Source: Dyadobacter beijingensis DSM 21582 (GTDB taxonomy: Bacteria; Bacteroidota; Bacteroidia; Cytophagales; Spirosomataceae). From it: a DNA stretch of 32,000 bases. The number at the start of each line of letters is the position of its first letter. Position 1 is the stretch's first letter. Under the pieces are notes generated by a model. It was given only the letters and a program-made list of their open reading frames with translations. It searched no databases and was not told where the DNA came from. Where the stretch lies: positions 441,007-473,006 of the forward strand of contig NZ_KB907791.1 in the NCBI RefSeq assembly GCF_000382205.1, written 5' to 3'. Position numbers and translations under genes: made by a program. This document shows, one piece after another, positions 3,180 through 22,581 of this stretch.

Positions 3180-3184
3180 GATAG

Positions 3185-5155: not shown

Positions 5156-6315
5156 GGTTCATTCGCATAGATCTGCGTAGTACGGATGTTCGTATGTCCA
5201 AGCATTTTAGAAACACTCTCAATCGGAACTCCATTTTGCAGGGTAATCGTAGTAGCGAACGTATGCCTGGCTACGTGTGAAGTGAGAACTTTATCAATCC
5301 CGCAGATTACGGCAATCTCTTTCAGATAATCATTCATTTTTTGGTTACTCGGCACCGGCAAAACGAGCCCGCGGGATTCGCAAAGCGGATGGCCTTTGTA
5401 TCTGTCAATGATTTGAAGCGCTTCCGGCAGCAACGGAATGTGAGACTTGACATTCATTTTGGTGCGCTGGCTAAATATCCACTGTTCACCGTCAATTCCT
5501 CGTGTTATCTGGCTTTTTTCGAGCTTCTGAACATCCGAGTAGGCCAGGCCGGTGAAACAACAAAAAAGAAAGGTGTCCCGAACCTGTGCAAGCCGGTCGC
5601 TAGCAAATTCTTTCCCCGCCATCAAATCCAATTCAGTTCTAGTGAGGATCTCCTTGTCAACCTTTTTAAATTTACCCTTGAAGTTCAAATACGGGTCAAG
5701 GTTCATCCAGCCATTGCCCAGGCAGATGTTGACGATTTTGCGGAACATTTTCATGTGCTTCACCACCGCGTTGTTGCCCATTTTACGAACTGAGCGGAGA
5801 TAGAATTCGTAATCGGCGATGAAAGCGAAATCGATGCGACTAATGTCAAAATCGGTTGTGTTGAATGTCACTTTCAGAAATGCGAGTGTATGGCGTTCTA
5901 AAACCTTATAGCGATTGAATGTATCGATTGCATATTCCTGGCCAACCAGTGCCTTCATCCGATCATTATGGTCAGCAATCACTACCATAAGTAACCGCTG
6001 CTTAGGACCGACGCCCAGAAATTTGTTTTTGACCGTTTCCGCTGTTATCAATGCGCCGTCGCGAACCAGGGCGGCGTGGGCGTCGAGTAGTTACTGTTCT
6101 AAGTTGCCGAGATAAGCGTTGACGGATTTCACGGTTTCCTTCGCACCGGTAACTCTTCCCGCAACCGCATTCCATCGACTGGGTTCGCATTCGCGCCCGG
6201 TCGTAAATTCAGCTCTTTTACTTTCAACCGTAATCCGCAGATAGATCGGAACCGGACCTTTCTGATAATTCTTCGGCTTCTTCAAATAGAAAAGCAGACT
6301 GATCTTTGTTTTCAT
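5134..6315 (-). pseudogene. Tyrosine recombinase/integrase (Bacteroidota Arm-binding + SAM-like + catalytic domains) with one in-frame TAA at 6091-6093
   Basis: The ORFs 6091-6315 and 5134-6051 are in the same frame (1182 nt = 394 codons). The minus strand reads ...AAC TTA GAA CAG TAA CTA CTC GAC... (NLEQ*LLD). The C-terminal catalytic motifs are HVARHTFAT and LGHTNIRTTQIYA. Confidence 0.85.
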
Positions 6316-7054: not shown

Positions 7055-7873
7055 ATGAGTCAATGTTTCACCATACAGCCTTTTGACAAAGATCGTTTTG
7101 ATAAGCGCTTTACAGATGTGTTTGAGCCCGCAATTAAGAAGGCTGGCTTAAATGCCTATCGGATAGATCGTGATCATTCAGTAAGAATCCCGATCGAGGA
7201 GATTGAGAAGGGCATAAGGGAATCGGAAATTTGTTTCGCGGAAATTACTACTAATAATCCGAACGTATGGTATGAGCTAGGCTATGCGTTTGCGTGTGGG
7301 AAGGATGTTGTGATGGTTTGCTGCAAAGATGAACGCAAAGAAGAATTCCCATTCGATGTGCGACATAAATTTATACTCGACTATAAAAGCACTTCAACAA
7401 GTGATTTCCAGTCTCTCTCCGAACTCATTACCGAACGTATCAAAGCATACCTTGCCACATCTAAGGTCACTGAAAAGCTCTCACTATCACCGATAATGGA
7501 AACTGAGGGGCTAAATGCTCAAGAAATTTCAGCACTAATAATAACGCTCGAGAATCAACCGACAGACCATGATATGTTAAGCGTCAATAGCTTGATTGAT
7601 TACATGGGCAAGGCTGGGTTCACTCGGGCAGCTACAAACGTGGCAATTCGCACTCTCAAACGCAAACAGCTGGTCGACTTTGTTCAAAAGGAAGAATATA
7701 ACTATAACGAATCCTACCAAATAACTTACTGTTTCTTGACAAAAAAAGGTGAAGATTGGCTAATCGATAATCAGGATAAAATTCGAATTAGGTTAGATCC
7801 ATCTGAAAAAATAAGTTCCGAAAAAACGGAATCCCCGTCTGAAAATGATGGTGATGATGATTTACCATTTTAA
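7055..7873 (+). CDS. Nucleoside 2-deoxyribosyltransferase-like / TIR-like Rossmannoid domain fused to a C-terminal winged-helix domain, with an acidic tail
   Basis: The N-terminus reads FTIQPFDK..FDKRFTDVFEPAIKKAGLNAYRIDRD...ICFAEITTNNPNVWYELGYAFACGKDVVMV. This fits the NDT/TIR-like pattern (DxxxxnpNVxyElGyAxaxgK). The C-terminal ...GFTRAATNVAIRTLKRKQLVDFV... is wHTH-like. The protein ends in ENDGDDDLPF. Confidence 0.6.
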   Translation: MSQCFTIQPFDKDRFDKRFTDVFEPAIKKAGLNAYRIDRDHSVRIPIEEIEKGIRESEICFAEITTNNPNVWYELGYAFACGKDVVMVCCKDERKEEFPFDVRHKFILDYKSTSTSDFQSLSELITERIKAYLATSKVTEKLSLSPIMETEGLNAQEISALIITLENQPTDHDMLSVNSLIDYMGKAGFTRAATNVAIRTLKRKQLVDFVQKEEYNYNESYQITYCFLTKKGEDWLIDNQDKIRIRLDPSEKISSEKTESPSENDGDDDLPF

Positions 7874-7907
7874 CTTTTTCGTTTTGAGTACTTACATTAG
7901 TTAAGAA

Positions 7908-9428
7908 ATGATTTTCAAGATACTCAATCGTTGGGGCGACTACCCTCCGTCCACTCGTAACCAAGTTATCCTTACCTGGGATAATTGGAATGATTTCCAA
8001 TTCTACACGTCCTTCGGCATTTTCTATATCGACGAGGATTCGAAAAAGCACGAACTTAGTGGTATAAAGATTGGATTTATTGGTCAGTCGGTGAAGCAAC
8101 GTGTATACAGCATAGGTCATTCGTTTGACCGCCTTGAATCACCATATTTTTCCTTGGGAACCTCCGAAGAGTACTACGAAAAATTAAATTTGCTTCCGGA
8201 TGATATCAGGGATGAAATTTTATCAGGCCTTCGCGATCTCGCAAAGGATACGGAACTGTTTTATGAGGTGATCAACGAACCGGTAGTCGCGAAATCGTTG
8301 CTGAGAGACCTAAGCATATCAACAGTTACGGGACAGTTTAAACGAATGACCGAAGGGGGGGCTAAGCTGACGGACTACCATTTTAAATTCAATTATGCGG
8401 GATTTGCAACGACTCATCCGGTCGAACTAACTTTTGACGTGTCTCCCGAGTCTCAGCCACCAACTAACATTCATGTGATTATTGGAAGAAACGGAGTTGG
8501 TAAGACATACTTGATAAATAGTATGATTGATGCTCTTGTTATCGATGGGAAGAAGCAAACCGGTGGGGGGGACTTTGACTTCGTTGGTTATAATTCTGAA
8601 AGTGGAGATTCATTTGCGAACTTAATATCCATATCCTTTAGTGCTTTTGACGAGGTAGAACCGAAGTCGAAGAGCACTAAATTTATGGGTAACATCAGTT
8701 ATTCCTATATCGGATTAAAAAATACAGAGGCAACAAACCTGCGACGTTCCTCCATCAAAGATCCATCTCTATTGGCAGATGAATTTCTAAATAGTTTAAG
8801 GGCATGTCGTTCAAGACTTTTGTCAAAAAGATGGCTCCAAGCTGTCTCCACGCTCGAGTCGGACCCGAATTTCTTTGAAGCTGGTATTCGGAGCTTGATC
8901 GACGAGGTCTCTCCTCGACGGTCCGCAGACGTTTTAAATGTTTTTCGAAGGCTCAGTTCGGGACATAAAATCGTGTTGTATTCAATCACAAGTCTCATTG
9001 AAAAACTACAAGAACGTAGCCTTGTCATAATGGACGAGCCTGAGGCGCACCTGCATCCTCCACTATTATCAGCCTTTATTCGGTCGGTTTCCGATCTTTT
9101 AATTATGACTAACGGTGTTGCGATTGTTGCGACCCATTCGCCAGTCATTCTTCAGGAGGTCCCTAGAAGTTGTGTATGGAAGTTGAGGAGAAGCGGACCG
9201 GTTATGGTTGGAGAGAGACTTGCGAGAGAATCATTCGGTGAAAACGTCGGAACATTAACAAATGAGATTTTTGGTCTTGAGGTTACTGATTCCGGTTTCT
9301 ATAAAATGTTAAATAAGATTATGAAGCTACAAAATTTTGATTATGAGTCCGTTATTCGAGAGTTCGGAGGTCAGTTAGGAATGGAGGCAAGGTCAATTTT
9401 AATGGCTGAAATTGCGAATAGAGAATAA
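7908..9428 (+). CDS. ABC/AAA_21-type ATPase (Septu PtuA-like) with a ~190-aa N-terminal extension of unknown function
   Basis: Walker A is GRNGVGKT (8484-8507). The ABC signature-like motif is LSSGHK. Walker B plus D-loop is LVIMDEPEAHLHPPLL (D376 at 9033). The H-loop is VATHSPVILQE. The stop overlaps the next start (TAATG). Confidence 0.75.
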   Translation: MIFKILNRWGDYPPSTRNQVILTWDNWNDFQFYTSFGIFYIDEDSKKHELSGIKIGFIGQSVKQRVYSIGHSFDRLESPYFSLGTSEEYYEKLNLLPDDIRDEILSGLRDLAKDTELFYEVINEPVVAKSLLRDLSISTVTGQFKRMTEGGAKLTDYHFKFNYAGFATTHPVELTFDVSPESQPPTNIHVIIGRNGVGKTYLINSMIDALVIDGKKQTGGGDFDFVGYNSESGDSFANLISISFSAFDEVEPKSKSTKFMGNISYSYIGLKNTEATNLRRSSIKDPSLLADEFLNSLRACRSRLLSKRWLQAVSTLESDPNFFEAGIRSLIDEVSPRRSADVLNVFRRLSSGHKIVLYSITSLIEKLQERSLVIMDEPEAHLHPPLLSAFIRSVSDLLIMTNGVAIVATHSPVILQEVPRSCVWKLRRSGPVMVGERLARESFGENVGTLTNEIFGLEVTDSGFYKMLNKIMKLQNFDYESVIREFGGQLGMEARSILMAEIANRE

Positions 9429-10276
9429 TGCGATCAATAACAAAGCCCAATCTAGACGCCTCGGTCGTATTTTCCGACTGCGTCAGCGTAGTACAATCTG
9501 AGAATCTAAGGCAGCGCCTAACTGCTTGCGCGGGCCTAATTGAGGATGCCGAAGAGGAGTTTGAACGGAAAATTACACGAGGCCGTATTCATACAATTGC
9601 TAGGGAGGATAGAGTAAATGGAAATGTATCCGTGAAGGAATTTATGAATCTCTACACCGGAAGGATGGTAGGGAACCCGTTAGGCCGGATACATTATGAC
9701 AAATTGCTTCTGTCAGCCCCAAACGGATTATGTCCGTTATGCGGTCACCGAGATGTGTCAACATTGGATCATTATCTACCTAAATCGAAGTATCCGCGTT
9801 TATCAGTTGTGCCAATAAATTTAGTTCCATCATGTAAGGATTGTAACACTGGTAAGCTTGTTGATTTTCCCGTGTCACCTGAGACCGAGACGTTACATCC
9901 ATACTTCGACCGAATTGGTAATCAACGTTGGTTATCATTAACAGTCAATAAGACCACTCCACTGTCTGTTACTTATTCAGTCGTTGATGTATTAGGTTCG
10001 GGTGCACTTATATTCGAAAGGATTAGGGAGCATTTCAAGGCATTTGGTCTTCAATCGCTATACGCCACGCAGGCCGCACGGGAACTTACAGGTATAAAAC
10101 TTCAATTAACCAATATTTTCGACAATGGGGCTGGATTTCCGGGAGTCCAAAGGTTCCTTAGAGATTCCGCGGAATCAAGATCAATAGATAATTTAAACTC
10201 TTGGCAGGCAGTTCTCTACGAAGGCCTTGCCAATGACGACTGGTTTTGTCGATTGGGTTTTCGAACCATTGCATGA
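9428..10276 (+). CDS. HNH endonuclease (Septu PtuB-like)
   Basis: CPLCGHRDVSTLDHYLPKSKYPRLSVVPINLVPSCKDCNTGK (9731-9853) fits the pattern C.xC...(x)DH..PKs.yp....NL.p.C..CN..K. It is translationally coupled to the ATPase. Confidence 0.75.
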   Translation: MRSITKPNLDASVVFSDCVSVVQSENLRQRLTACAGLIEDAEEEFERKITRGRIHTIAREDRVNGNVSVKEFMNLYTGRMVGNPLGRIHYDKLLLSAPNGLCPLCGHRDVSTLDHYLPKSKYPRLSVVPINLVPSCKDCNTGKLVDFPVSPETETLHPYFDRIGNQRWLSLTVNKTTPLSVTYSVVDVLGSGALIFERIREHFKAFGLQSLYATQAARELTGIKLQLTNIFDNGAGFPGVQRFLRDSAESRSIDNLNSWQAVLYEGLANDDWFCRLGFRTIA

Positions 10277-10454
10277 GGTATTCTTGAAGTAGCTAACATT
10301 CTAGTCATCGGTAAATCAAAATGACAAATGGGCGCCCATTGAATTGTCAGCATTGTTGCCTCGCTTTCGAGGGTTAAAATGGCTAGGTTGTAATATCAAG
10401 AACCATAAACCAATTAGTACGCTAATATTTATCTAAATAGCACCCGAGTTATGT

Positions 10455-10955
10455 ATGGTCTCATTTGCAATTAAAGTCCTCTTGATAGCTGGAGTAATTG
10501 TCTCCATTGTTATTTCTCGTGTTTTAGATTTGTCATTCACAGTTGAAGGCATTTCGGCAGTCGGTAGTCTTCTTACAGGCATTTCTGCGCTGATAGCCAT
10601 TTTAGGTGCCTTCTATACTATGCGCTATCAGGTTAAAAAAACAGCTCATAGCGAGTGGTTGAAAGTGTTTCGATCAGAATGCGCTAAGGTACTGGCGTCC
10701 TCTCAAAAGCTTGAAGCAAATTCTATGAAAAGTGAGCTCGTTGAGTTCGGCAATTCAAGTATGACACTGTTGTTGCTACTTAATCCTAGATCTGAAAGCC
10801 AGCGGTTGCTTGAGAAGATGGTTAAAGATTTTACTATTTTTATGATGAGTTCCGATATGAGTGACCCAGACTTCAATAGGGTCTTTTCTAAGAATTGGAA
10901 TATAGTTCTCTCCCAAATGAAGGCAATTATTACGGAGGAAGAAAATAGCTTTTAG
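10455..10955 (+). CDS. Small membrane protein (two N-terminal TM helices plus a soluble helical tail), unknown function
   Basis: Hydrophobic stretches FAIKVLLIAGVIVSIVISRVL and AVGSLLTGISALIAILGAFYTM are followed by a charged tail. I recognised no family. Confidence 0.45.
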   Translation: MVSFAIKVLLIAGVIVSIVISRVLDLSFTVEGISAVGSLLTGISALIAILGAFYTMRYQVKKTAHSEWLKVFRSECAKVLASSQKLEANSMKSELVEFGNSSMTLLLLLNPRSESQRLLEKMVKDFTIFMMSSDMSDPDFNRVFSKNWNIVLSQMKAIITEEENSF

Positions 10956-11096
10956 TCTCTTAATCACATTTTCTGAGGCATGTACAGAGATCATTTACGT
11001 ATTGTCCCTCACAATTTGTAAGATTAGCTGCGGCTCATTGGGGGCATCACGTCCGTTTAGAGGCTATTGCCTATAATTAGAAAAATTTAATCGATA

Positions 11097-14000
11097 ATGA
11101 GTCCCGAAAATGATTACGCATTAAGTCGTTTAGCCGTACGCCTTGATAACATAGAAAACGGCACGCCGATCGGCAGTGGAATACTATTTAATTGTAACAC
11201 GCCATCAGGTCCAGTTTATTTAATCACAGCGGCCCATTGCTTGTACGAGGATGAGGAGACTTTCCAGCTTCCGAGGTTACGGATACAAGCCCAATTTTTT
11301 GATCCTAGGCTTGGATCGCATCAATCTGTTACGATTAATGTCAATCACGATTTGGTGTCAAAATCTCCACTTAACGACATTGCCATAATTCATCTGGAGA
11401 AGGACGTGGTAGAGTTGATCACCGGCGAGTTGCCAACGGTTCATGCCATCAGCGAGCGACACTCAATCACTTCCTTTGTTTTGAAAGGATTTCCAAGCGC
11501 CACACGTGGCCAGGAAATTGTTATGATAAAGCCGGAGTTTGTTCAAGCGAATCCAGGAAGATTGGGTTTCCAGTTGCGCCTAACAGATGATTTTACCACG
11601 GATACCAGTGCAGAGTCGAAAGTGGACGGTTTCTCGGGGAGCGGGATTTTTCTGGAAACACATGGTAGACTGTATCTTTACGGTATTTTTACCCGGTTTC
11701 GAGAGGCTCAGAAGATCATCTATTGTCAAAACATCGAGACTGCCAACGAGCTACTTGCTGTTGCCTTTTTACAGACCATCCCCTTCACCTATATTGGTGA
11801 GCACGGACTCACGCCCGAGTTTTTTGCAAGGCACAATTCAGGCGCGATAAATAATCTGGGGCCGCGATTTAGTGAGCAATTGAATTTGCGATTGCCAATT
11901 GTCGGCGATTTTCATGACGCGCGTAGAGGCAATGCATTTAAATATAGGCTTCAAGATTGCGTCGAACAATGGCTTGATTCTCACAGACATTCCGGCTCAG
12001 ACTTCAAAGGCGGAATACTTGAGACAACTGTCAGTGAATGGCATTCTATCAAAAAGTCTGTTATTACGTGGATCACAAACATTCAATGGCGAGCTGACCA
12101 GCATCTCAGCATCGCCCCGATTCAAGATATTCTTGACAGTTTCAAGCTCCATGTTGATGCGAAAAAGGAGGATTTCTACGCACTGCGACAAAGGAACAGA
12201 CAACAAGAAACGCCGCCGAGCAATGAGAAGAAGAATGCTCATACTTCTCGAAGACAGCAGTATGAAGATGAATTGACTTGGCTGCGAACCGTTGATCAGG
12301 CTATTTACGCACTCGAGCGTGCATTATCAGAAATATCCATTACGCTTGCAAATAATCCCTTTCTGGTAATTAAAGGCGAGCCGGGATGTGGGAAGTCCCA
12401 TTTGCTCGGTGATATTGCTAGTTTGGCGACTAAGGATGGCGTTGCGACTCTCTTGTTATTGGGGCAGCTCTTCACAAAGAGTCAAAGCGTTGCTCAGAAC
12501 ATTTTAAGCCAACTTGGCCTTAACTGCTCTCCGGATGAATTATTCAATTCGCTGAACAGTATAGGTAGGCAGCAAGGTGCAAGAGTTCTATTGATGATCG
12601 ATGCGCTCAATGAAGGCCCAGGTAAGGACCTGTGGAAAGATTCGTTGGCGGGTTTTATTCAGGATGTAAAGAGGTATCCTTTTGTTGGTGTGATTATGAC
12701 TGTTCGGTCCACATATTTCAACGCTATTCTTCCAACAAATTTACAAAACGATGAAACGATCACGTACAGAGATCATCAAGGTTTTAAAGGAAATGAATAT
12801 GCGGCTCTCCGACTTTTCTGTGAACACTACGGACTACAAATGCCGACGTTTCCGATTTTGACGCCTGAATTTGCCAATCCACTCTTTCTTCAACTCTTAT
12901 GTCAGGGCGTTAAGATCTCTAGAAACAGGACTTTCCCGCATGGCTTCCAGGGGATTACAAAAGTATTTAACTACTATATAGATGCAGTGTTTGAAAGACT
13001 AGTCGGGAAAAGAGATGAGTATGAGAATCGGCGTCATATTGTCCGTGATGCTATTTTTACAGTTGCGAAAGCCTGTTTTAGTGATGATAATTCACGAATA
13101 TTGTCATTTGAAGATGCAGACAGGCTTTTTGAAAAAACTTTCCCGCGATTCCAACACTTGCTGAATGATCTTATTCACGAGAACGTTTTCATCCAAACGA
13201 CTCAAAATACCTACGATTTAAATCCAGGATTTGAAGCGCTGTCGTTTTCCTATGAACGATTCGGAGACATTTTCATCGCTGAGGAATTGTTGGCTGGGTA
13301 TGTTTCAACTGCGGATGTTAGCCAAGCATTTCAGAAAGATGGCAAGCTTGGACGGTTGCTAAAAGGCTATTTGTGGCCAAACAGAGGTGTTCTTGATGCA
13401 ATGGCTATTCGTTTACCTGAAAGATACGGCTTGGAACTAATGGAAATATGCGATTGGGTCTATGCCGAGGAGGAGGATTCAGAGTACAGTGATGTCGGCG
13501 AGTGGCTATCTCGATCTTTTTGGGACAGCTTAAAATGGCGACACCCGGAAAGCATTGATAATGCGAAGATAACAACATGGTTGAATAGCGACCAATGCAT
13601 GCTGAATGAACACGAGTACACTTTGAAGTTAGTCGAATTAGCAACTGTTCAGCAGCACCCCTTCAATTCGGATCGACTGTTCAGATATTTGAATCAGTTT
13701 TCGATGGCGGAACGCGACGCTTTTTGGCAAGAACATATGCTTAGATATTCTCGATATGATGACGATCGAAATGCTCTTCCAATAAGACGACTTATGGATT
13801 GGGCATGGCAAAAGGGAATATCATCATCAGTTGACATGGAGACCGCTCGCCTTGCCGCGCAAACTCTGGCTTGGCTTCTTTCAAGCACTTATAGACAACT
13901 TCGGGACCAAGTAACTAAAGCCATGGTGAATTTGCTAGAAGAGCAGCCAGATGTCCTAATTGAAGTTATGACAGCGTTTAAGGATACAGACGATGTCTAT

Positions 14001-15431
14001 ATTTCGGAACGGCTTTACTCAGTAGCTTATGGATGTGTACTTCGGACTGCGAATGGCAGTAGCATCGCGAAAATAGCGAAATACGTATATAACCGTACGT
14101 TCATTGGTAAAAACCCGCCCATTCATGTACTGCTTCGTGATTACGCTAGGAATATTTTGGAATATGCCGACTACAAAGGACTAGCTGACTACGCCGATAT
14201 GGCACGAGTACGTCCGCCCTACAATAGTGACTTTCCAAAAAGATTACCGTCCGAATCGGAGATTAAGCAATTCGAAAATAGTTTTGAAGGGACAGGCCAA
14301 AGCTTGGAAAAAGAAAAAAACAGGATATATGGACAGATACATTTTTCAACGACCACATGGGATTTTGGGCGCTATGTGGTGAAAAGTGCCCTTAGGCATT
14401 TTGCCCCAACTAGTTTTAAATTCGAGTCGACATATAGAGATTTTAAAAAGTCACTTAAAGGAAAAAGAAAATCTTTCATATCCGTGTTAGAATCAAGTGC
14501 TCGCCTACATTCGGTAATCGAGGAAAGGCGTGCACAAGGTGTTAAATCCCTTTTTGGCAAGTCGACAGATGATTGGCTTAGAGAAGAAGAAGAGCATCTT
14601 CAGGTATGTCTTGATCGTATGAATGGACCATTTGATCAGATAGAAATGATGCAAATACGCGACGAATTTTTACCTTTTCTCAAAGCGAAATATGCGAGCC
14701 AAAGTGGCCAACGGGATGCTATTGATGACGGACCCATCAAACGCTGGATTGTCCAGCGTTCATTCCAATTGGGATATGACATCGAAAAACATTATGATTA
14801 CGACAGCCGTACCGAAAGACTCAACGAGTTTCCAGACTATTATGGAAGCAAAATTGAGCGCATTGGAAAAAAATATCAATGGATTGCATTCCATGAAATT
14901 GTTGCCCGGCTTTGCGACAATTACCATTTCATCGAAGATAGATGGAGCTCGAGTGCTAAGTATGGGTTGTACCAGGGGCCATGGCAGCTTTTAATAAGAG
15001 ATGTCGATCCGGTGTTCACAACAAAGACAAAGAGAGAGGAAAATGACAGCGACTTGGGAGAAGCTACCGATTTTTCAAAAAAGGATTGGAGGTTTGACGC
15101 AGATTACCGATACTGGAACCAGCCGGTATCGCAATGGGTAAGAAATAAGCAAGATCTACCTGCACCCGAAAAAATGATTCTTCGTAAAGATGATTATGGA
15201 CACGAGTGGGTGTACCTGCGAATGAACAAAACTTGGCAAGAACCGAAGGGAGTTGGATCGGACCGACATATTAGTCGTAAGGAGATATGGTATGGGATTA
15301 ATTCTTATCTCGTACCAAAGCGAGACAGAAAGAAGATAGTTGCGTGGCTAGAGGGGAAAAACTTCTTCGGCAGATGGATGCCTGAACCTGACGAAATGAG
15401 CTTAAATCTTTTCAATAGGGAGAATTATTGA
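11097..15431 (+). CDS. Trypsin-like serine protease fused to a STAND/NACHT-like P-loop NTPase with a long helical C-terminal region (Avs/NLR-like). The frame continues past the TGA to 15881
   Basis: Protease triad motifs are LITAAHCL (His47 at 11235-11237), NDIAIIHL (Asp94) and DGFSGSGIF (Ser180). Walker A is GEPGCGKS (12375-12398). Walker B is LLMIDALNEG (Asp502 at 12600-12602). More than 900 aa of mostly helical sequence follows. Confidence 0.8.
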   Translation: MSPENDYALSRLAVRLDNIENGTPIGSGILFNCNTPSGPVYLITAAHCLYEDEETFQLPRLRIQAQFFDPRLGSHQSVTINVNHDLVSKSPLNDIAIIHLEKDVVELITGELPTVHAISERHSITSFVLKGFPSATRGQEIVMIKPEFVQANPGRLGFQLRLTDDFTTDTSAESKVDGFSGSGIFLETHGRLYLYGIFTRFREAQKIIYCQNIETANELLAVAFLQTIPFTYIGEHGLTPEFFARHNSGAINNLGPRFSEQLNLRLPIVGDFHDARRGNAFKYRLQDCVEQWLDSHRHSGSDFKGGILETTVSEWHSIKKSVITWITNIQWRADQHLSIAPIQDILDSFKLHVDAKKEDFYALRQRNRQQETPPSNEKKNAHTSRRQQYEDELTWLRTVDQAIYALERALSEISITLANNPFLVIKGEPGCGKSHLLGDIASLATKDGVATLLLLGQLFTKSQSVAQNILSQLGLNCSPDELFNSLNSIGRQQGARVLLMIDALNEGPGKDLWKDSLAGFIQDVKRYPFVGVIMTVRSTYFNAILPTNLQNDETITYRDHQGFKGNEYAALRLFCEHYGLQMPTFPILTPEFANPLFLQLLCQGVKISRNRTFPHGFQGITKVFNYYIDAVFERLVGKRDEYENRRHIVRDAIFTVAKACFSDDNSRILSFEDADRLFEKTFPRFQHLLNDLIHENVFIQTTQNTYDLNPGFEALSFSYERFGDIFIAEELLAGYVSTADVSQAFQKDGKLGRLLKGYLWPNRGVLDAMAIRLPERYGLELMEICDWVYAEEEDSEYSDVGEWLSRSFWDSLKWRHPESIDNAKITTWLNSDQCMLNEHEYTLKLVELATVQQHPFNSDRLFRYLNQFSMAERDAFWQEHMLRYSRYDDDRNALPIRRLMDWAWQKGISSSVDMETARLAAQTLAWLLSSTYRQLRDQVTKAMVNLLEEQPDVLIEVMTAFKDTDDVYISERLYSVAYGCVLRTANGSSIAKIAKYVYNRTFIGKNPPIHVLLRDYARNILEYADYKGLADYADMARVRPPYNSDFPKRLPSESEIKQFENSFEGTGQSLEKEKNRIYGQIHFSTTTWDFGRYVVKSALRHFAPTSFKFESTYRDFKKSLKGKRKSFISVLESSARLHSVIEERRAQGVKSLFGKSTDDWLREEEEHLQVCLDRMNGPFDQIEMMQIRDEFLPFLKAKYASQSGQRDAIDDGPIKRWIVQRSFQLGYDIEKHYDYDSRTERLNEFPDYYGSKIERIGKKYQWIAFHEIVARLCDNYHFIEDRWSSSAKYGLYQGPWQLLIRDVDPVFTTKTKREENDSDLGEATDFSKKDWRFDADYRYWNQPVSQWVRNKQDLPAPEKMILRKDDYGHEWVYLRMNKTWQEPKGVGSDRHISRKEIWYGINSYLVPKRDRKKIVAWLEGKNFFGRWMPEPDEMSLNLFNRENY

Positions 15432-15533
15432 TCCCCCGCAGCGAAATTTGACAATAGTCAGCGAAATCTTTGGGAAACTATTTCCGGTACTAAATTCAAG
15501 GTAATCCTTACCACTAATCGAGCGGTAGGTGAA

Positions 15534-15881
15534 ATGAGCGAGGACAAATCTGATGCTCACTTTTATTACGAGATGCCTTCAAAGATAATCTTTGAAGGTA
15601 TGGGATTGAATTATGCATCTGAGGATGGTTGCTTTACGAATGGAGATGGTCAAGTTGTTGTGATCAATGTAGATCAGACTGGGGTCTTGGTGAGGAGGAA
15701 AGAGTTGGTACTGTTTCTCAATAATAATAACTATGATATTATATGGACCTTACTCGGAGAAAAAAATGCTCTAACAGGGTTATCGACGAACAGTGATGCA
15801 TACTTTAAAGCAATATGCGGAGTCTACCAATTTGAAGGAGATAAGATAATTGGCGATTTATCTATTTTTGAACGTAACTAA
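15534..15881 (+). CDS. Either the C-terminal ~150 codons of the protease-STAND protein, separated by an in-frame TGA, or an independent 115-aa protein
   Basis: It is in the same frame as 11097-15431. The 34 codons between the TGA (15429-15431) and this ATG contain no stop (SPAAKFDNSQRNLWETISGTKFKVILTTNRAVGE). I recognised no family. Confidence 0.4.
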   Translation: MSEDKSDAHFYYEMPSKIIFEGMGLNYASEDGCFTNGDGQVVVINVDQTGVLVRRKELVLFLNNNNYDIIWTLLGEKNALTGLSTNSDAYFKAICGVYQFEGDKIIGDLSIFERN

Positions 15882-15885
15882 AAAT

Positions 15886-16974
15886 ATGCGCATTCGATTT
15901 TATCAGGTTGACTGTGGTGACGCGGCTAGTATTTTGTATGAAGGCAGTGATGGGAAGGACAACTATGTTTTCGTAGACGCTGGCTACGAGAGGACTTATC
16001 GAGAAATTCTCGCTGACGAAATCAAGATTATCGATGCGACAGGTGCTACGATTGATCTGTGGTTGATTTCTCACATCCATGATGATCATATTGGCGGAGC
16101 TGTCTCATATGCAAAAGCGATAGAAAGGTGCGATGCCAGGGACATCGTTTCAAATTGGTGGTACAATCATCCCTATAAAGCAATAGGAGATACGAAAGCT
16201 CCCAAGTCAACTTTTAATATAAGTGAAGCCAAAAGTTTCGCGCAGAGTGAAAAACTAACCTCCTACCTCCGATCGGCTGGTCGTCTGCCGAAGTTTGATA
16301 TTGTTCAAGCAATCGATCCCAAATACCATAACGATCTGAAAATCAATATACTGTCACCAACGAAGGATGCTGTAAACAAATTGAGAGAAAAATATGAGAA
16401 TTCCAGCTTTCTCGACAGGGACTATCATGAGATGACCGCGATTAGTGAGCCGAAAGCAGCGAAAATGAATGACTACTGCCAAACGATAGAGAGCTTTGAT
16501 TTAGAGGCTTTTGCAGAGGATGTGTCAATCGAAAATGAAAGTAGTATAGCGATTTTGATAGAGCACAGTGGCATACGAATACTCTGGTTGGCCGACTCCC
16601 TTCCTAGCATAATTACAACCGCTCTTAGAAATCTTGGATACTCCGAAGGGAACCCATTGCAGGTTGACCTAGTGAAAGTCTCCCATCATGGAAGCCGTGG
16701 AAACAATAGCAGCGAACTGTATGATATGGTTCGCTGTGACAAATATATTTTCTGTGGAAGTGGAATCAATAAGCACCAATTGCCTACGAAAGAATGCATG
16801 GTGAGAATTCTTAAAAATAAATATAGGGACGTTAGAGACCGATACGAGTTTATATTTACTCACGACAATCCCAGCCTCCGCGGAATTTTTGATGTTGATG
16901 AAATTGACATTGTTAAAAACTTAAACTTTACGATGACTTTTTCTGCCTCTAAATATGTCGATTTGCATTTTTAA
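15886..16974 (+). CDS. Metallo-beta-lactamase-fold hydrolase, ComEC/Rec2-type (probable nuclease)
   Basis: HxHxDH motif SHIHDDHIGG (16072-16089). A later VKVSHHGSRGNNS is typical of ComEC-type MBL domains. I prefer the ATG at 15886 (MRIRFYQVDCGDA), 4 nt after the upstream stop, over the track start at 15850. Confidence 0.75.
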   Translation: MRIRFYQVDCGDAASILYEGSDGKDNYVFVDAGYERTYREILADEIKIIDATGATIDLWLISHIHDDHIGGAVSYAKAIERCDARDIVSNWWYNHPYKAIGDTKAPKSTFNISEAKSFAQSEKLTSYLRSAGRLPKFDIVQAIDPKYHNDLKINILSPTKDAVNKLREKYENSSFLDRDYHEMTAISEPKAAKMNDYCQTIESFDLEAFAEDVSIENESSIAILIEHSGIRILWLADSLPSIITTALRNLGYSEGNPLQVDLVKVSHHGSRGNNSSELYDMVRCDKYIFCGSGINKHQLPTKECMVRILKNKYRDVRDRYEFIFTHDNPSLRGIFDVDEIDIVKNLNFTMTFSASKYVDLHF

Positions 16975-17084
16975 TGTAAGAAGCTACTTATTTGAACCAT
17001 TATGAATATTGAATACCCGATTAAGTTCAACCAAACTTAAATGACCTTTCGATGATAACTATTTAGTAGTATCGGCAATATAAA

Positions 17085-18554
17085 ATGAAAGATGCGTTAT
17101 TATTTATGCAAAATTTAGAAATGAAGACATATAAAGCTGTTGAACAATCGAACGTCGTTCGCGACCTAGATGAAGAAATCTCAATTGGTAACTATGTGCT
17201 TGATTTAATTCATCCAGACAGAGCAGCTTCGATTAACGTTAAATTGGAATTTCGTACGTCGCCAATTAATCATGTATTCTTATGTGGTACGGTGGTCCCT
17301 GGCAAGGAGCCGTTTAGTTTGATGGTTTTGCACGGTAATAAGTATCAGGCATTTGTAGAAGGAGTAAAGGTTGGAAATATAGTGTTGCGTAAGTACGACG
17401 AGAAAACAGGTGCGGTTCAGGGAGTATTCCTCGGCGAGACCGTCTTCGGAGACCGGTCGGTCTATGCTGATCGGGCCAGATTTCTTATTCAAAATCTCCG
17501 CGAGATTGGAGGGCGTCAAATGGTTTATGAAGATGGCTCCTTTAATGTCGGACACTATACATTTGATGATGGCAAATTCGAAATTCAAATTAGTAGAAAT
17601 CGAGAATTCAATTTAAAAATGCAAGCTTGGCAGGATTTCGGAGGTGCGTTCTGGGGTTATTCGGGAGAAGTAAAAAAGAAAGGGAGTTCCATTTCATTTG
17701 AAGAAGTAAACAAGGTTCTTAAGTCATTTGGGTCATTTCTAACGATGATTAATGGTGCCACTATTTCTCCATTAGTTGTCGAAGGGATTGCGCGAGATGG
17801 ATCACAGCTCTTGTGGCGAGATTTTTCGGCCTATGCTAATAGTAACGCTATTTTTTCTAACACACACGGTCTCTTGCAATCAAAAACCTATTTGAATCTA
17901 AACACTACGTGGCAAAATTTCAGGAAATTGGAGACGTTTCCAAAGGACAAGAGCTTTCTTAACTCTGCTTTGAAATGGTATATCGAGGCAAATTCGAGTA
18001 CTAGTCTGGAAGCATCTATAGTTATTTCACAAACCTGCTTGGAACTAATTTACAACTGGCTTGTGGTTGAGAAAAGGCAAATGCTTGCAGGCAAAGATGC
18101 TAGTAATATTCTTGCCGCAAATAAGCTACGCCTGCTAAACAGCATCATAGATTTCAAAATTGACCTTCGAATGCTTCCCGCGCTTGCAGATGGAGGCTTC
18201 CAGAAGAGTCGGGATAAGGACATTTTCAACATCATTGTCGGTATACGCAACGCGCTAGTGCACGGTGAAGAAACGAAACGGGAAAGTATTGAGAGCCTGC
18301 TGCCACACGCGCTGCACCAAGCGCGAGAATTACTTCTGTATATGATTGAGATGGCACTTTTGTTTATATTAGGATACGAAGGACGCTATTGTAGCCGGTT
18401 CCTGGTCCCAGAGGTAAGAGCTATTGCCAAGTATCCTGTACCGTGGCATCGATTATACGATAAGATCATGTGGAATATTGAGACAGGGAAGTATGACCCG
18501 GATCTGGCCAAGGCCGAGACGGATTTGCTTTATGGAGAAGGGAGTCATCTTTAA
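17085..18554 (+). CDS. HEPN-domain protein with a large uncharacterised N-terminal domain (ApeA-like architecture)
   Basis: The C-terminal helical domain carries an Rx4H motif, GIRNALVHGEE (R388-H393, 18246-18263). It is preceded by a helix, SLEASIVISQTCLELIYNWLV. The N-terminal ~300 aa is beta-rich with no recognised motif. Confidence 0.55.
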   Translation: MKDALLFMQNLEMKTYKAVEQSNVVRDLDEEISIGNYVLDLIHPDRAASINVKLEFRTSPINHVFLCGTVVPGKEPFSLMVLHGNKYQAFVEGVKVGNIVLRKYDEKTGAVQGVFLGETVFGDRSVYADRARFLIQNLREIGGRQMVYEDGSFNVGHYTFDDGKFEIQISRNREFNLKMQAWQDFGGAFWGYSGEVKKKGSSISFEEVNKVLKSFGSFLTMINGATISPLVVEGIARDGSQLLWRDFSAYANSNAIFSNTHGLLQSKTYLNLNTTWQNFRKLETFPKDKSFLNSALKWYIEANSSTSLEASIVISQTCLELIYNWLVVEKRQMLAGKDASNILAANKLRLLNSIIDFKIDLRMLPALADGGFQKSRDKDIFNIIVGIRNALVHGEETKRESIESLLPHALHQARELLLYMIEMALLFILGYEGRYCSRFLVPEVRAIAKYPVPWHRLYDKIMWNIETGKYDPDLAKAETDLLYGEGSHL

Positions 18555-18764
18555 ATGTGAAGTGAATCACCGTTTGCTCAGCTCAAAAGCAGGTTACGGC
18601 ACATCGCTCTGTGTTTTAGTATATTGAAGAACTTTGATGACAAATCAGTAAGTGTTGGTAGTGCTACTATCTTTCTACCTAAGGAGTTAATGAGCAGGGC
18701 TCATTGAAGCGTAGGCTTAGCCAAAATGTAAGCTTTTCGGAATCATGATACCAAGATTTACAAA

Positions 18765-19712
18765 ATGAGTCATAATAAAATTACTACCGTTACCAGAACA
18801 AGTATCGCTGATGCCTTGACCGTCGGAAAATTGTGGTACAGCGGAAGATTGAAGGAAGCAGATTTTTTAAACCGGATCTACGATTTGTCGGCGATGCCTT
18901 CAACAGATTATAGACCGGAATATAATAATGCTTATAAAGACGTTTATCAACATGCCGATATGAACTTCGGAGACTGGGAACCGGATTGGGTGTTTACCGA
19001 TGTCCGTTTTAATCTGATGCATTGCGACGATGAGACATATTTAAAGTTTTTAACTGAAACTTTAAATCCGAACGTAAGGCCTGACATTAACGATACCAAC
19101 AAAGTCGTTGGGATTTATAATAAGTATTTGCAACCAGATGGGTTTCAATTTTATCAGACTGGTGAATTATCTGGAAGACCTGTTTTTTCATGGACGAGAG
19201 ATGGGATCAGCCAGACCCGGCTGGTCGCTAAGGCCGTTGAGATCAGAAAGTATATTGATACTGACTATGTGAACAAGAAGATCGAGCAGATGAATAAGGC
19301 TATCCCCAACGACACAGATGTCGCCATCGGTACCGGTAAAGAATTGTTGGAGATCATTTGTAAATCTATATTGAAGCAAAAGAATGTTGATATTGATAAA
19401 GGTTGGACACTCCAACAACTCATAAAGCACACAACAAATATCCTGGATTTCAAGCCAAAAGAAGCTGATCAGCCGGATGCTGCCGAACGATCCATAAAAC
19501 AAGTCTTAGGCGGTATAGCAACAATTGTCCAGGGGGTAACGGAGCTAAGAAACGCTTATGGTTCCGGGCATGGTAAGGATGCCGAATTTAAAGGATTAGA
19601 GAGTAAATATGCTAAATTATATGTTGGTGTTGTTGCTGAAATCGCTATTATCTATCTTGCCACAAACGGCGAGACTGTGATGGTCGAACCTATCAACCCG
19701 TCTATTTTGTAG
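18765..19712 (+). CDS. AbiJ-like abortive-infection protein (AbiJ N-terminal domain plus Abi_C/HEPN C-terminus)
   Basis: The C-terminal VQGVTELRNAYGSGHGK (R at 19548, H at 19569) matches the Abi_C 'RN..G.GHG' HEPN motif. The N-terminal ITTVTRTSIADALTV...WYSGRLKEADFLNRIYDL resembles AbiJ-NTD-type domains. Confidence 0.7.
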   Translation: MSHNKITTVTRTSIADALTVGKLWYSGRLKEADFLNRIYDLSAMPSTDYRPEYNNAYKDVYQHADMNFGDWEPDWVFTDVRFNLMHCDDETYLKFLTETLNPNVRPDINDTNKVVGIYNKYLQPDGFQFYQTGELSGRPVFSWTRDGISQTRLVAKAVEIRKYIDTDYVNKKIEQMNKAIPNDTDVAIGTGKELLEIICKSILKQKNVDIDKGWTLQQLIKHTTNILDFKPKEADQPDAAERSIKQVLGGIATIVQGVTELRNAYGSGHGKDAEFKGLESKYAKLYVGVVAEIAIIYLATNGETVMVEPINPSIL

Positions 19713-19876
19713 CCTGGCGGCCTTTGAAAAACCATAAGGTATTTATCATTATGGTGGGACATGAACAGTGCCATTAAACATAACGTCAAGGCGGGCAGTC
19801 ACTTACGCGAAAATGATTCAAATTAGCTGATGCATAGGCGCGTTTTATTGTAAGTATATCAAATACCAACAGAATT

Positions 19877-20533
19877 ATGATCGATGAACTAATTGATTTT
19901 CATAAAAAAGAACTGAACTTCTACTACCTAGTCACCAGGAAAAATAAAACCTGGCAGACCGCTCTAATAAATGCATCCTTTGCATTGGCTTTTATTTTTT
20001 ATTCTCTTATGTTATTCATGGGCGAAATCTGGTATGGTGTGTGGGCAGGCGTTTGTCTCGTAGTTGCGGCGTGCCTGGCCAAAGTGTTTAACACTATGAC
20101 CATTAAGAGGCTTTATCCGGAAGTTTATACACCTTGGTATCAACCCTTCCCACGCTCGGCATTTAATGACATGATACTAATGAAATTCAGAAAGCATGTG
20201 GAGGACAAAAAATGGGATGATAAAAAATGGGACATGATACAAGCTGCTGTCGCCAGTGTGGCGGAAAGGCAAAGGATGTCGCTTATTATTTATATATCTG
20301 CGGTAGCCGCGCTCATTTTGCCTGTCTGGGGCATCTATGCTGTTAAAATGATAAGCAAATTCGACAACCCTCCCTATGACCTGACAAAGGGATTTGTGAC
20401 TATGATCATGCTGATTATTGTTATGGCCATCATACCCATGCAGGTTGCCTGGATGAGGGATCACATTTTCAGTAACTATGGAAGATTGACTAGGTTCAAC
20501 AAACTTATAACGGATTTCAGGCTGCTTGTTTAG
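19877..20533 (+). CDS. Polytopic membrane protein, unknown function
   Basis: It has at least four hydrophobic segments (ALINASFALAFIFYSLMLF, IWYGVWAGVCLVVAACLA, LIIYISAVAALILPVWGIYAV, FVTMIMLIIVMAIIPMQVAW). It lies 165 nt downstream of the AbiJ-like gene on the same strand. Confidence 0.5.
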   Translation: MIDELIDFHKKELNFYYLVTRKNKTWQTALINASFALAFIFYSLMLFMGEIWYGVWAGVCLVVAACLAKVFNTMTIKRLYPEVYTPWYQPFPRSAFNDMILMKFRKHVEDKKWDDKKWDMIQAAVASVAERQRMSLIIYISAVAALILPVWGIYAVKMISKFDNPPYDLTKGFVTMIMLIIVMAIIPMQVAWMRDHIFSNYGRLTRFNKLITDFRLLV

Positions 20534-21136
20534 CTTTCGGAAAAATCAGGCGGTGGCTGGTAGATTAAAGTAGTTTTTTGTCGATTGTCAGCATTTCGGA
20601 ATTTCTATCAGAGGGAACCCGTTCCGGATGGGCTTGATAATTTGTTCAGCTCGAACAGTTTCATTGAACTCAGTGCTCTGAGCTAGGGGAAGTATGATAA
20701 GAGCTTTAATGATGTGCCCGTTCTCCCACGCTTCCAATTTAACCGAGCAGGAAGCTGATTCAAAGCGGCGCACTCTTGAATGATAGCCGATAAACGCATG
20801 AGATTGGTAAAACCAACTTCAAACCGTCTCATAATCTGGGGGGCTTAAAACTACTGATTTCCAGCTATCAAAATTGGGTGTATTTTGGGTACAGCTAAAA
20901 GTTGTACTTGAAGAGCGGTGATTTCGGATGTTGTTTTGTCAGGTTTTCGGATGATGAGAAATTGCAAATATACCCGCGTTGGTCACCCGACAAGGCTGCT
21001 TAACGCATTATCAGACCGTTAGTCAAGTTTTTTGGCTTGTTAGTACGAAGTATTTTTGGCGAAAATCGATACATGTGTATTTTTGAAACGGCGCCTGGAA
21101 GTGCCCGGTGTTCATCTAGTATGACTTTAAAGATAT

Positions 21137-22042
21137 GTGGGAATGGTACTTCATGCTAATGAGCGATATCCGCTCGTAAAATTTCTTTTTGACGAGCTAT
21201 CCGGTAGCTTTTTCGAAAATGAGCTAACATGGTTAAACAGGCTAGTGATTCTTTATCACAACAGAAAAACATTGTCGATTCGTGATGACCACGACAGCTT
21301 CCTTCAAGATTTTATCTCAAAAAACAAGAACTCCTCTTTTTTTGACATTCTTAGGTCGCAGGCAGCTCGCCAATCTATGCGGACCACTCGGGCAAGATTA
21401 AGCTATTTGCTGACGAACAACGCGAGGCTGGTAGAGGATCTTCTCCATCGAGATGATTATGGTTTGCCGAAAGCCAGGTTTGAGACAATTGTCCAAATAT
21501 ATGATTGGCTGAAAGGTGTACCTTATGACGTCGACCTGAAAACAGGCTTAGACCTGGAGGCCTGGAAACAAGAGATACGTGATAGGTATCCTAACATATT
21601 AGAGAGAACTATTTTGCGGCCCCGCAAAAATGCACTCTTTCAGAATGAGGAAAGGACCAGAAATTTTTCGGACCTGTTTATGGGAATTGATCAGCAAGAG
21701 CGCGAAGCAAAATTTGAGAAGCTGCTCGGATGCCTGACGGAAGCCGATTGGATTGCGCCAGCGGATATGGCCGGAAAATTTCAGTTACGAAAATCGGCTC
21801 ACGGAGGTAGGCTTTGGATAGCGGCTCTTTACTATGCATTGTATCAAAAACAGCACATTAAAGAATCTCAGACGGCATCTACCATCGCAGGCCTCTTTAA
21901 CAACTGGCTCATTCATCCTTTTTCAAATGAATCGTTCGAGAAGGTATTCCAGCCTGAGGAGCAAGCAAAATTCGCAGGGAAGGGCAACCATCAACGCGGA
22001 AGGTATGCGCAGGAATGCTTCCTGCTGATCCAAAATCTGTAA
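21137..22042 (+). CDS. Hypothetical protein (first gene of the higher-GC backbone)
   Basis: A 301-aa ORF followed by a terminator-like structure. No motif was recognised. The start is uncertain (GTG 21137 or ATG 21143). Confidence 0.45.
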   Translation: MGMVLHANERYPLVKFLFDELSGSFFENELTWLNRLVILYHNRKTLSIRDDHDSFLQDFISKNKNSSFFDILRSQAARQSMRTTRARLSYLLTNNARLVEDLLHRDDYGLPKARFETIVQIYDWLKGVPYDVDLKTGLDLEAWKQEIRDRYPNILERTILRPRKNALFQNEERTRNFSDLFMGIDQQEREAKFEKLLGCLTEADWIAPADMAGKFQLRKSAHGGRLWIAALYYALYQKQHIKESQTASTIAGLFNNWLIHPFSNESFEKVFQPEEQAKFAGKGNHQRGRYAQECFLLIQNL

Positions 22043-22052
22043 TAATAGGAAC

Positions 22053-22106
22053 TCCTGATCATTTTTGTTCTTTTCATTCCGGCCGGAACATCAGGATCGT
22101 TTTTGC
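22053..22106 (+). terminator. Compound hairpin plus T-run after 21137-22042
   Basis: TCCTGAT (22053-22059) pairs with ATCAGGA (22090-22096). They enclose the perfect 12-bp palindrome TTCCGGCCGGAA (22077-22088), and TCGTTTTT follows. Confidence 0.4.
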
Positions 22107-22560: not shown

Positions 22561-22581
22561 AACCAATAAACCAACTGACCA

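Follow-up and report, generated by a model that had tools for sequence, protein, structure and literature searches.

A probable Avs2-trypsin-MBL locus (AVAST type 2, two genes) in Dyadobacter beijingensis, with a TGA codon interrupting the sensor gene

Two adjacent genes were analysed in the window, a stretch of 32,000 nucleotides of Dyadobacter beijingensis DNA (Table 1). The first has a reading frame of 1594 sense codons (11097-15881, forward strand) that closes with a TAA at 15879-15881 and carries an in-frame TGA before it; the second codes for an MBL-fold hydrolase, and its ATG at 15886 lies 4 nt past that TAA. A first-pass annotation, made from the letters of the DNA, had described the pair as a protease-STAND sensor co-transcribed with a ComEC-type MBL nuclease, and its anatomy proved right, from the Ser-protease triad and the Walker A and Walker B motifs, all found where it had placed them, to the start of the MBL gene and the two metal-binding motifs, HIHDDH and SHHGS (MBL residues 63-68 and 266-270).

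Table 1. Features of the avs2-MBL locus, in positions of the window.
Feature	Position	Strand	Remarks
Avs2 gene as now read	11097..15431	+	1444 codons up to the premature TGA
Trypsin-like serine protease effector domain, N-terminal	11097..11786	+	about residues 1-230; H47, D94, S180
STAND NTPase core	12294..12746	+	about residues 400-550; both Walker motifs
Helical sensor (TPR-like domain and most of the C-terminal domain)	12775..15428	+	unbroken match to Avs2 profiles and 9o4e_A
In-frame TGA nonsense codon, codon 1445	15429..15431	+	replaces Trp (TGG) of the motif NRENYW-SP
Orphaned last 149 codons of Avs2 and original TAA	15432..15881	+	frame kept, intact
MBL-fold pro-nuclease, 362 aa	15886..16974	+	predicted to be cut by the Avs2 protease and to act as its effector
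Predicted scissile bond 1, I112-S113	16219..16224	+	gating loop 1, disordered residues 101-114
Predicted scissile bond 2, I186-S187	16441..16446	+	gating loop 2, disordered residues 178-192

An exact-sequence look-up showed that the product of the large gene up to the TGA is 100% identical to RefSeq WP_026351064.1 of D. beijingensis, which NCBI names 'AVAST type 2 anti-phage system protein Avs2'. The same 1444-aa part matched the PADLOC profile PDLC02163 Avs2 with E=0 and 2073.6 bits over profile positions 1-1427 of 1576, and by itself reached 1258.1 bits against the NCBIfam equivalog model NF041813 Avs2, whose cut-off is 1000 bits. A solved Avs2 structure, PDB 9o4e_A, also matched the part before the TGA (7e-156, residues 165-1319); 9o4e was considered as the Vibrio cholerae protein VcAvs2 and rejected, since the two differ in the numbering and residues of Walker A (IGK348 vs TGK394), and represents another Avs2 homolog. 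The closest database homolog of the window Avs2 has 64% identity, and the solved Avs2 much lower. These matches assign the large gene to Avs2 of AVAST type 2, an already named family.

The catalytic motifs of the large protein are intact. The protease domain contains TAAHC (residues 44-48, H47), NDIAII (93-98, D94) and GFSGSG (178-183, S180); its Pfam Trypsin score of 20.1 bits is slightly under the cut-off of 20.6, its PADLOC matches are to the protease-type LmuA (1e-21) and RT_UG9_large (5e-11), and its closest solved relative is the trypsin domain of Hachiman HamA (9wh1). The NTPase core scored 29.1 bits with Pfam AAA_22, over the cut-off, with NACHT and nSTAND3 sub-threshold, and it contains Walker A GEPGCGKS at residues 427-434 (12375-12398, K433) and Walker B LLMIDALNEG at residues 498-507 (12588-12617, D502). 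In a family alignment of 19 sequences, S180, G427/G430/G432/K433/S434 and D502 were invariant, and H47 and D94 were at least 90% conserved. The stretch of more than 900 residues in which the first-pass annotation recognised no motif corresponds to the TPR and CTD sensor of Avs2, matched end to end by the Avs2 profiles. The roles of these two sensor domains are assigned from the VcAvs2 cryo-EM preprint, and by homology the helical region would bind the phage terminase through its ATPase domain.

The MBL protein is identical in sequence to WP_019945473.1, and 48-50 of 50 syntenic homologs share each of its metal ligands (H63, H65, D67, H68, D237 and H267/H268). It scored 30.3 bits with Pfam Lactamase_B, and its PADLOC matches were the MBL-type LmuA (5e-69, the best), RTasMBL (1e-42) and Avs1a (3e-34). 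Assignment as an Avs1a equivalog was rejected at 151.9 bits for NF041809 vs a cut-off of 420, which leaves a related MBL that is no equivalog. A Lamassu assignment of the MBL was also discarded, with no LmuB or LmuC among the listed PADLOC matches of the 19 flanking ORFs; the LmuA-type matches reflect the shared effector module only. ComEC/Rec2 was rejected too, at 31.5 bits vs 190 for TIGR00361 and with a match restricted to the C-terminal MBL motif region. The AF2 model (pLDDT 88.2, pTM 0.88) had as its best PDB fold match the ComEC beta-lactamase-like domain 9ic4 (E=1.7e-11), and we regard the kinship with the ComEC MBL domain as fold-level only.

The sole two low-confidence loops of this model, with pLDDT below 50 across residues 101-114 and across residues 178-186 and 188-192, each contain an Ile-Ser pair. 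Alignment and disorder together predict these pairs as scissile sites, I112-S113 being the putative analogue of I133-S134 in the V. cholerae protein VcMBL and I186-S187 that of I232-S233. At the first site, 31 of 50 homologs have I or V at P1, 15 have a non-aliphatic residue there (N, A or T), and all 50 have S or G at P1'; at the second, 44 of 50 have I or V at P1, and P1' is S in 48 of 48.

The pairing of the two genes is strict. Across loci from GTDB species-representative genomes and two contig look-ups, an MBL homolog lay 5-50 nt downstream on the same strand in all 47 evaluable loci where the Avs2 homolog bears the protease, and in none of the 15 evaluable loci where it does not. The window follows the same pattern, with a separate MBL gene next to a protease-bearing Avs2 at a gap of 4 nt, and the expectation that an MBL gene would be conserved directly downstream of homologs of the large gene was borne out for those with the protease. 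A third conserved gene was looked for and rejected: neither the 166-aa ORF upstream nor the 489-aa ApeA-like ORF downstream had a homolog in 79 related loci. These counts independently confirm, in a large Bacteroidota clade whose MBL gene is downstream, the co-occurrence already published. This clade, in which the MBL gene always lies downstream and the fragment excised between the predicted sites would be shorter, is a candidate sub-variant of the module.

As the first-pass annotation had indicated, the surroundings of the locus are a defence island; the island is carried by an integrative, mobilisable element. The neighbours that had been called Septu-like and AbiJ-like hold up well (PtuA/PDC-M01A 7e-191 and PDC-M01B 2e-98 for the former, AbiJ_NTD3 3e-48 plus Abi_C for the latter), and the ApeA-like gene retains a sub-threshold HEPN_Apea match only (21.6 bits, under the 24.4 cut-off). 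The description of the region as AT-rich is weak, with a GC content of 0.43 for Avs2, 0.41 for the MBL gene and 0.42 for the island at 7055-20533 vs 0.45-0.46 in the flanks of the window. By megablast, positions 11000-17000 had no match in complete E. coli genomes, nor did positions 7000-31000 in PLSDB plasmids. A scan of 10200-18800 returned 27 sigma-70 promoter-like sites vs 19.2 ± 3.4 expected, in a scan ill-suited to Bacteroidota promoters, and 6 intrinsic-terminator-like sites vs 6.7 expected.

The TGA falls at a position occupied by Trp in 60 of 60 aligned homologs, and it removes the last 149 residues of Avs2, that is, the end of the terminase-binding CTD. A genetic code with TGA as Trp was rejected, since TGA is the ordinary stop of 8 of the 22 other ORFs in the window and the Avs2 frame has 32 TGG codons against this single TGA. 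The piece after the stop still matches PADLOC Avs2 positions 1429-1575 of 1576 (3e-48), NCBIfam Avs2 positions 1164-1317 and 9o4e_A residues 1345-1477 of 1484. By exact-sequence look-up, a 115-aa 'hypothetical protein' (WP_157505207.1 / GGN13918.1) is called there from an ATG at 15534, and in the family alignment this Met is a conserved internal residue (consensus ...VGEMSxDKS...). Recorded products of 1444, 945 and 115 aa all respect the stop, and the first two end ...NRENY; their accessions belong to two series, WP_ and GGN, and the contigs that carry them measure 490,906 and 490,902 nt, which means two assemblies. The reading frame is therefore interrupted, which bears on function and not on descent, and the gene is filed as a pseudogenised member of its family.

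Since the gene calls of two assemblies end at the same stop, the TGA is most likely a real pseudogenising mutation and not an error. Both assemblies probably come from the same type strain, so the TGA could have arisen in a culture-collection stock and not in nature. That the organism has an intact, functional 1594-aa Avs2, obscured by a sequencing or assembly error, is improbable: the TGA is one base away from the invariant TGG and the 149 codons after it are undamaged, as such an error would have it, but both assemblies share the stop, and the 1594-aa sequence with the Trp repaired was absent from a collection of 15 billion proteins searched by exact look-up, even though that exact sequence could just be unsampled. 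A 37-nt exact pattern across the stop, with TGA or TGG allowed, was not found in JGI metagenome contigs. The undamaged codons past the stop fit a very recent event, and a tolerated or read-through stop would fit them too. Among bacterial stop codons UGA is the leakiest, and it is near-cognate to Trp, which counts for a premature stop that is tolerated or exploited, as does the undamaged state of both the MBL gene and the codons past the stop. Such a truncated Avs2 could work with a CTD-shortened sensor of altered or relaxed trigger specificity, as a split protein complemented in trans by a C-terminal fragment of 115-149 aa, or through rare tRNA-Trp read-through that holds a potentially autoimmune Avs2 at very low dose, and VcAvs2 without TPR and CTD does keep its protease active, indeed auto-active. 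An auto-active truncation adjoining an intact MBL gene would be toxic, however, and the CTD is half of the terminase-binding cleft. At least 120 homologs among the matches listed are all about 1470-1605 aa long and the 60 aligned ones all have the Trp, so that these give no natural precedent for a stop, and the conserved internal nature of the Met at 15534 argues against a new start. We therefore hold a working truncation, by any of the three routes, to be highly improbable; if true, a stop that is tolerated or read through would be of mild interest for the restraint of toxic sensors, but it finds no support here. Because the change of TGG to TGA at codon 1445 cuts 149 CTD residues, the sensor gene most likely became a pseudogene recently and left a non-functional locus, with the MBL gene still intact.

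The first-pass annotation had also proposed an undescribed immune module, possibly with the protease-STAND protein and the MBL as two independent effectors, and to this reading we give next to no probability. It could draw on PADLOC 2.0 and NCBIfam, which model Avs2 as one gene, and on the score of the MBL under the Avs1a cut-off, and these are the reasons why automated annotation leaves the pair unlinked. However, PADLOC, NCBIfam and RefSeq all name the large gene Avs2, the Avs2-trypsin-MBL pair is published, named and mechanistically characterised, and both genes match this named system, the outcome that the annotation itself had given as its refutation. Its 'two-effector' design does not agree with the characterised homologs, in which the MBL zymogen is the sole shown substrate of the protease and no parallel effector, whereas its alternative of an activator plus a nuclease does. 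The region is thus very probably an AVAST type 2 locus with two genes, of the Avs2-trypsin-MBL kind, and with a sensor probably inactivated by the TGA.

Detailed genetic, biochemical and structural work on the Avs2-trypsin-MBL pair has been published by Tuck et al. (Science 2025, PMC12799240), by Evans et al. (2025, PMC12642450) and in two preprints of the Xiao laboratory (10.1101/2025.09.03.673762 and 10.64898/2026.08.25.746987, the latter by Guo et al. 2026). VcAvs2 and VcMBL provide phage defence triggered by the large terminase (PMC12642450; 10.64898/2026.08.25.746987), and cutting of VcMBL at its two Ile-Ser bonds leads to Zn-dependent DNase activity. Cryo-EM showed VcAvs2 as a tetramer, with the terminase ATPase domain held by TPR and CTD. 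Proteolytic activation to a DNase was demonstrated for VcMBL, AtMBL, HamM and EpiAvs1a, and the same protease/pro-nuclease logic operates in an Avs1 system and in Hachiman. The window itself contributes family membership, intact catalytic motifs, strict synteny and conserved Ile-Ser sites on loops modelled as disordered; terminase sensing, tetramerisation, MBL cleavage and DNase activity would carry over from the published homologs. In an intact system, the TPR and CTD sensor of Avs2 would bind the ATPase domain of the large terminase subunit of a phage, and the STAND NTPase domains would form a tetramer. The tetramer would unite four N-terminal trypsin-like domains into an active protease, which may then cut the MBL zymogen after Ile on the two loops that gate its active site, at the predicted I112-S113 and I186-S187 bonds. 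The freed MBL would act as a Zn-dependent, non-specific DNase, so that DNA is degraded and the infection aborted.

The system is already known, and the locus is an ordinary, truncated and probably inactive copy of Avs2. Its significance beyond annotation is small. PADLOC 2.0 and the NCBIfam label treat Avs2 as a single gene and the obligatory MBL partner is left as a generic 'MBL fold metallo-hydrolase' or 'ComEC/Rec2 family' protein; therefore, the pair seems unlinked to a naive reader. The nonsense codon is also a small example of the decay of a defence gene within a mobile island.

Among known systems, VcAvs2 with VcMBL shares with the window membership of the Avs2 family by HMM, the trypsin-like domain, the STAND NTPase, TPR and CTD, a separate adjacent MBL, the same catalytic motifs and two Ile-Ser sites on two MBL loops. 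The window pair differs in lineage (Bacteroidota, not Vibrio), in the length of Avs2 (1594 aa vs 1461 aa) and in the predicted sites, which at 112 and 186 instead of 133 and 232 would give the window MBL a shorter excised middle fragment. Unlike VcAvs2, the window copy has a nonsense codon and has lost its last 149 residues, which are equated with the VcAvs2 terminase contacts G1401, S1402 and K1405 of 1461 by position and not by alignment. AVAST type 1 (Avs1a MBL and Avs1b protease-STAND; EpiAvs, PMC12799240) likewise places a trypsin-MBL module on a terminase-sensing STAND protein, and the EpiAvs pro-nuclease is gated and cut at two isoleucines, as predicted for the window MBL, but its sensor belongs to the Avs1 family and the window MBL falls far below the Avs1a cut-off. 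According to Tuck et al. (PMC12799240), the nuclease gene is 'typically upstream', whereas it is downstream in all 47 evaluable protease-bearing loci of the clade considered here. Hachiman HamMAB, the protease/MBL variants of Lamassu and DRT UG9 with MBL have a protease domain and MBL homologous to those of the window, but their sensors are unrelated (the HamB helicase, the SMC-like LmuB/C and a reverse transcriptase, respectively), and none adjoins the window pair. The MBL domain of ComEC/Rec2 has metal-binding motifs in common with the window MBL, besides being its best structural match; ComEC, however, is a membrane channel protein without gating insertions, and the window MBL is a soluble protein with two inserted disordered loops.

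The protein encoded by the large frame that precedes the MBL-fold gene is Avs2. The first-pass annotation had proposed that this trypsin-like protease and STAND NTPase gene, together with a ComEC-type MBL gene, was an undescribed immune module, but the system has already been named and mechanistically characterised, and the very protein is annotated as Avs2 in RefSeq. An in-frame TGA divides the frame, and the PADLOC model for Avs2, PDLC02163, aligned its positions 1-1427 of 1576 with the 1444-aa part before it (2073.6 bits, E=0), while the 149 codons past it matched the remaining positions 1429-1575 (3e-48). NCBIfam NF041813 ("AVAST type 2 anti-phage system protein Avs2"), an equivalog model with a cut-off of 1000 bits, scored the window protein at 1258 bits, and the solved Avs2 structure 9o4e matched it at 7e-156, with the post-stop piece aligning with residues 1345-1477 of 1484. 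A database search returned 247 homologs, the named ones nearly all from Bacteroidota and many already carrying the name Avs2; the top homolog is 64% identical, and sizes among the 120 matches listed are about 1470-1605 aa. By exact-sequence look-up, the 1444-aa product is WP_026351064.1 of Dyadobacter beijingensis, recorded under the same name as the NCBIfam model.

The underlying reading of the sequence was nevertheless correct. The protease motifs TAAHC (H47), NDIAII (D94) and GFSGSG (S180), the STAND motifs GEPGCGKS (K433) and LLMIDALNEG (D502), and an MBL-fold gene with HIHDDH and SHHGS starting 4 nt after the large frame are all where they had been reported, which confirms the observation, and the catalytic triad and Walker motifs are kept across the family alignment. 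The stretch of more than 900 residues described as having no motif does exist, but it corresponds to the TPR-like and C-terminal sensor domains of Avs2. The region is AT-rich only weakly: GC content is 0.41-0.43 for Avs2 and MBL, and the window flanks stand at 0.45-0.46.

The module is covered by Tuck et al., Science 2025 (PMC12799240), by Evans et al., 2025 (PMC12642450) and by two Xiao-laboratory preprints (10.1101/2025.09.03.673762 and 10.64898/2026.08.25.746987). Jointly, these four sources report that the Vibrio cholerae pair, VcAvs2 and VcMBL, protects against several phages, requires the protease serine or histidine as well as the MBL aspartate, and is toxic only when the large terminase subunit is co-expressed. 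VcMBL is cleaved in vitro after I133 and I232, only with terminase, and the cleaved protein is a Zn-dependent DNase. Cryo-EM showed VcAvs2 as a C4 tetramer in which the terminase ATPase domain is clasped by the TPR together with the C-terminal domain (CTD), and activity of the trypsin domains requires tetramerisation. According to the Xiao-laboratory preprints, half of the terminase-binding cleft is made up by the CTD, which has contacts at G1401, S1402 and K1405 in its last 60 residues, and VcAvs2 without the entire TPR and CTD has a protease that is auto-activated in vitro.

Whether an MBL gene is conserved directly downstream of homologs of the large gene was examined at 79 loci, drawn from two contig look-ups and from GTDB species-representative genomes scanned with an Avs2 alignment, by tblastn with four pieces of the window (protease, STAND-plus-sensor, C-terminal piece and MBL). 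It is: an MBL homolog was present in all 47 protease-bearing Avs2 loci with enough downstream DNA, at 35-64% identity, on the same strand and 5-50 nt past the Avs2 stop, and tblastn found none in the 15 loci whose Avs2 homolog has a different N-terminus; the other loci were cut by contig ends. The upstream 166-aa ORF and the downstream 489-aa ApeA-like ORF had no homolog in any of the 79 loci, and therefore the system consists of two genes.

The MBL protein matches Pfam Lactamase_B and, in PADLOC, the MBL-type LmuA (5e-69), DRT-associated MBL (1e-42) and Avs1a (3e-34) models, and it falls under the NCBIfam Avs1a cut-off (151.9 bits against 420). The N-terminal protease of Avs2 in turn matches the PADLOC protease-type LmuA and RT_UG9 models, and these shared matches indicate that both genes belong to a module common to several defence systems. 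Among 50 syntenic homologs, the metal ligands H63, H65, D67, H68, D237 and H267/H268 are invariant. The homolog alignment also contains two sites in which I or V is followed by S; the P1' position of the first is occupied by S or G in all 50 homologs and that of the second by S in 48 of 48, and cleavage is predicted between I112 and S113 and between I186 and S187. An AlphaFold2 model built from a 44-sequence alignment was confident overall (pLDDT 88.2, pTM 0.88), and its low-confidence residues (101-114, 178-186 and 188-192) are exactly the loops with the predicted cleavage sites. The top solved fold match of the model was the beta-lactamase-like domain of ComEC (9ic4, E=1.7e-11), in agreement with the ComEC-type label and with the two gating insertions published for MBL relative to ComEC.

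The TGA at 15429-15431 (codon 1445) is the sole one in the Avs2 frame, and its alignment column (MAFFT) is Trp in 60 of 60 homologs, in the motif NRENYW followed by SP. An alternative genetic code reading TGA as Trp is ruled out by the 32 TGG codons in the same frame and by the TGA that ends 8 of the 22 other window ORFs; with TGG in use and TGA an ordinary stop, the codon is therefore a TGG-to-TGA nonsense change. The three recorded products found by exact-sequence look-up all obey the stop (1444 aa; 945 aa, residues 500-1444; and a fragment of 115 aa whose called start is the ATG at 15534), and the repaired 1594-aa protein, with Trp at codon 1445, was not in the protein collection searched. 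Since WP_ and GGN accessions both occur among these products, on contigs of 490,906 and 490,902 nt, we infer that the stop is present in two assemblies, probably both from one type strain, and a random sequencing error is accordingly unlikely. In the second assembly (GCM10010967_ locus tags, 490,902 nt contig) the 945-aa product, starting at M500 (window 12594), replaces the 1444-aa one, either as a gene-caller quirk or through a further upstream lesion. The segment lost past the TGA is the end of the Avs2 CTD and, by position rather than by alignment, would correspond to the terminase contacts of VcAvs2. The nonsense change most likely reflects a sensor recently inactivated beside a still intact pro-nuclease gene, and the 1444-aa Avs2 may be inert, unstable or mildly auto-active.

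Features of the Avs2-MBL locus and the surrounding island (window positions)
Feature	Position	Strand	Remarks
IS3-type transposase pair	2295-3505	-	mobile-element hallmark
Leucine-rich-repeat protein, 349 aa	4106-5155		several LRR Pfam models, ~1e-5 to 1e-7; adjoins integrase
Tyrosine integrase	5134-6051	-	mobile-element hallmark
TIR/NDT-like gene, 272 aa	7055-7873		PADLOC "Effector TIR" 8e-8; Pfam Nuc_deoxyrib_tr under cut-off; weak
PtuA/PtuB-like pair	7908-10276		PDC-M01A 7e-191, PDC-M01B 2e-98; genes overlap 1 nt
166-aa ORF	10455-10955		hydrophobic N-terminus; between Septu-like pair and Avs2
Avs2 frame	11097-15881	+	ATG at 11097, TAA 15879-15881; 1594 sense codons (ORF listing and translation)
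MBL ORF	15886-16974	+	ATG 4 nt past Avs2 TAA; 362 codons; HIHDDH 63-68, SHHGS 266-270
489-aa protein	17085-18554		110 nt past MBL gene; HEPN_Apea at C-terminus, sub-threshold (21.6 vs 24.4 bits)
AbiJ-family abortive-infection gene	18765-19712		AbiJ_NTD3 3e-48, Abi_C 1e-16; clear
NikA-like and MobA relaxase genes	23940-25576		mobile-element hallmark
ArdA anti-restriction gene	28384-28941		mobile-element hallmark
IS256 / Mutator-family transposase	30659-31855	-	mobile-element hallmark

Avs2 and MBL sit in a defence island together with the TIR/NDT-like gene, the PtuA/PtuB-like pair, the weak HEPN_Apea protein and AbiJ, and the island is enclosed by an element with the integrase, the transposases, the relaxase genes and ArdA. 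Of the flanking defence genes that had been proposed, the Septu-like (PtuA/PtuB) and AbiJ assignments held, but the ApeA-like one comes down to a weak HEPN_Apea match in the 489-aa protein, which had no PADLOC match, is not kept beside Avs2 homologs and carries the UniRef name "YopA central domain-containing". The TIR/NDT-like gene stops 35 nt ahead of the PtuA/PtuB-like pair, and 7055-10276 may be a three-gene Septu-like variant. The 166-aa ORF had no match in Pfam, PADLOC or NCBIfam, and the leucine-rich-repeat protein had none in PADLOC. Between AbiJ and the mobilisation genes sits a same-strand run of ORFs at 19877-23803 (218, 301, 106, 231 and 177 aa), with no Pfam or PADLOC match. The defence genes are probably carried on an integrative mobilisable element, and a contig look-up showed that one homologous Avs2 locus adjoins CTnDOT-type transfer genes, as would fit horizontal transfer by elements that are conjugative or mobilisable.

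Compared with the characterised system, the differences found here are minor: MBL is downstream of Avs2, where one of the papers places it "typically upstream"; a shorter fragment is predicted to be excised from MBL; and, locally, a nonsense codon probably inactivates this Avs2 sensor.
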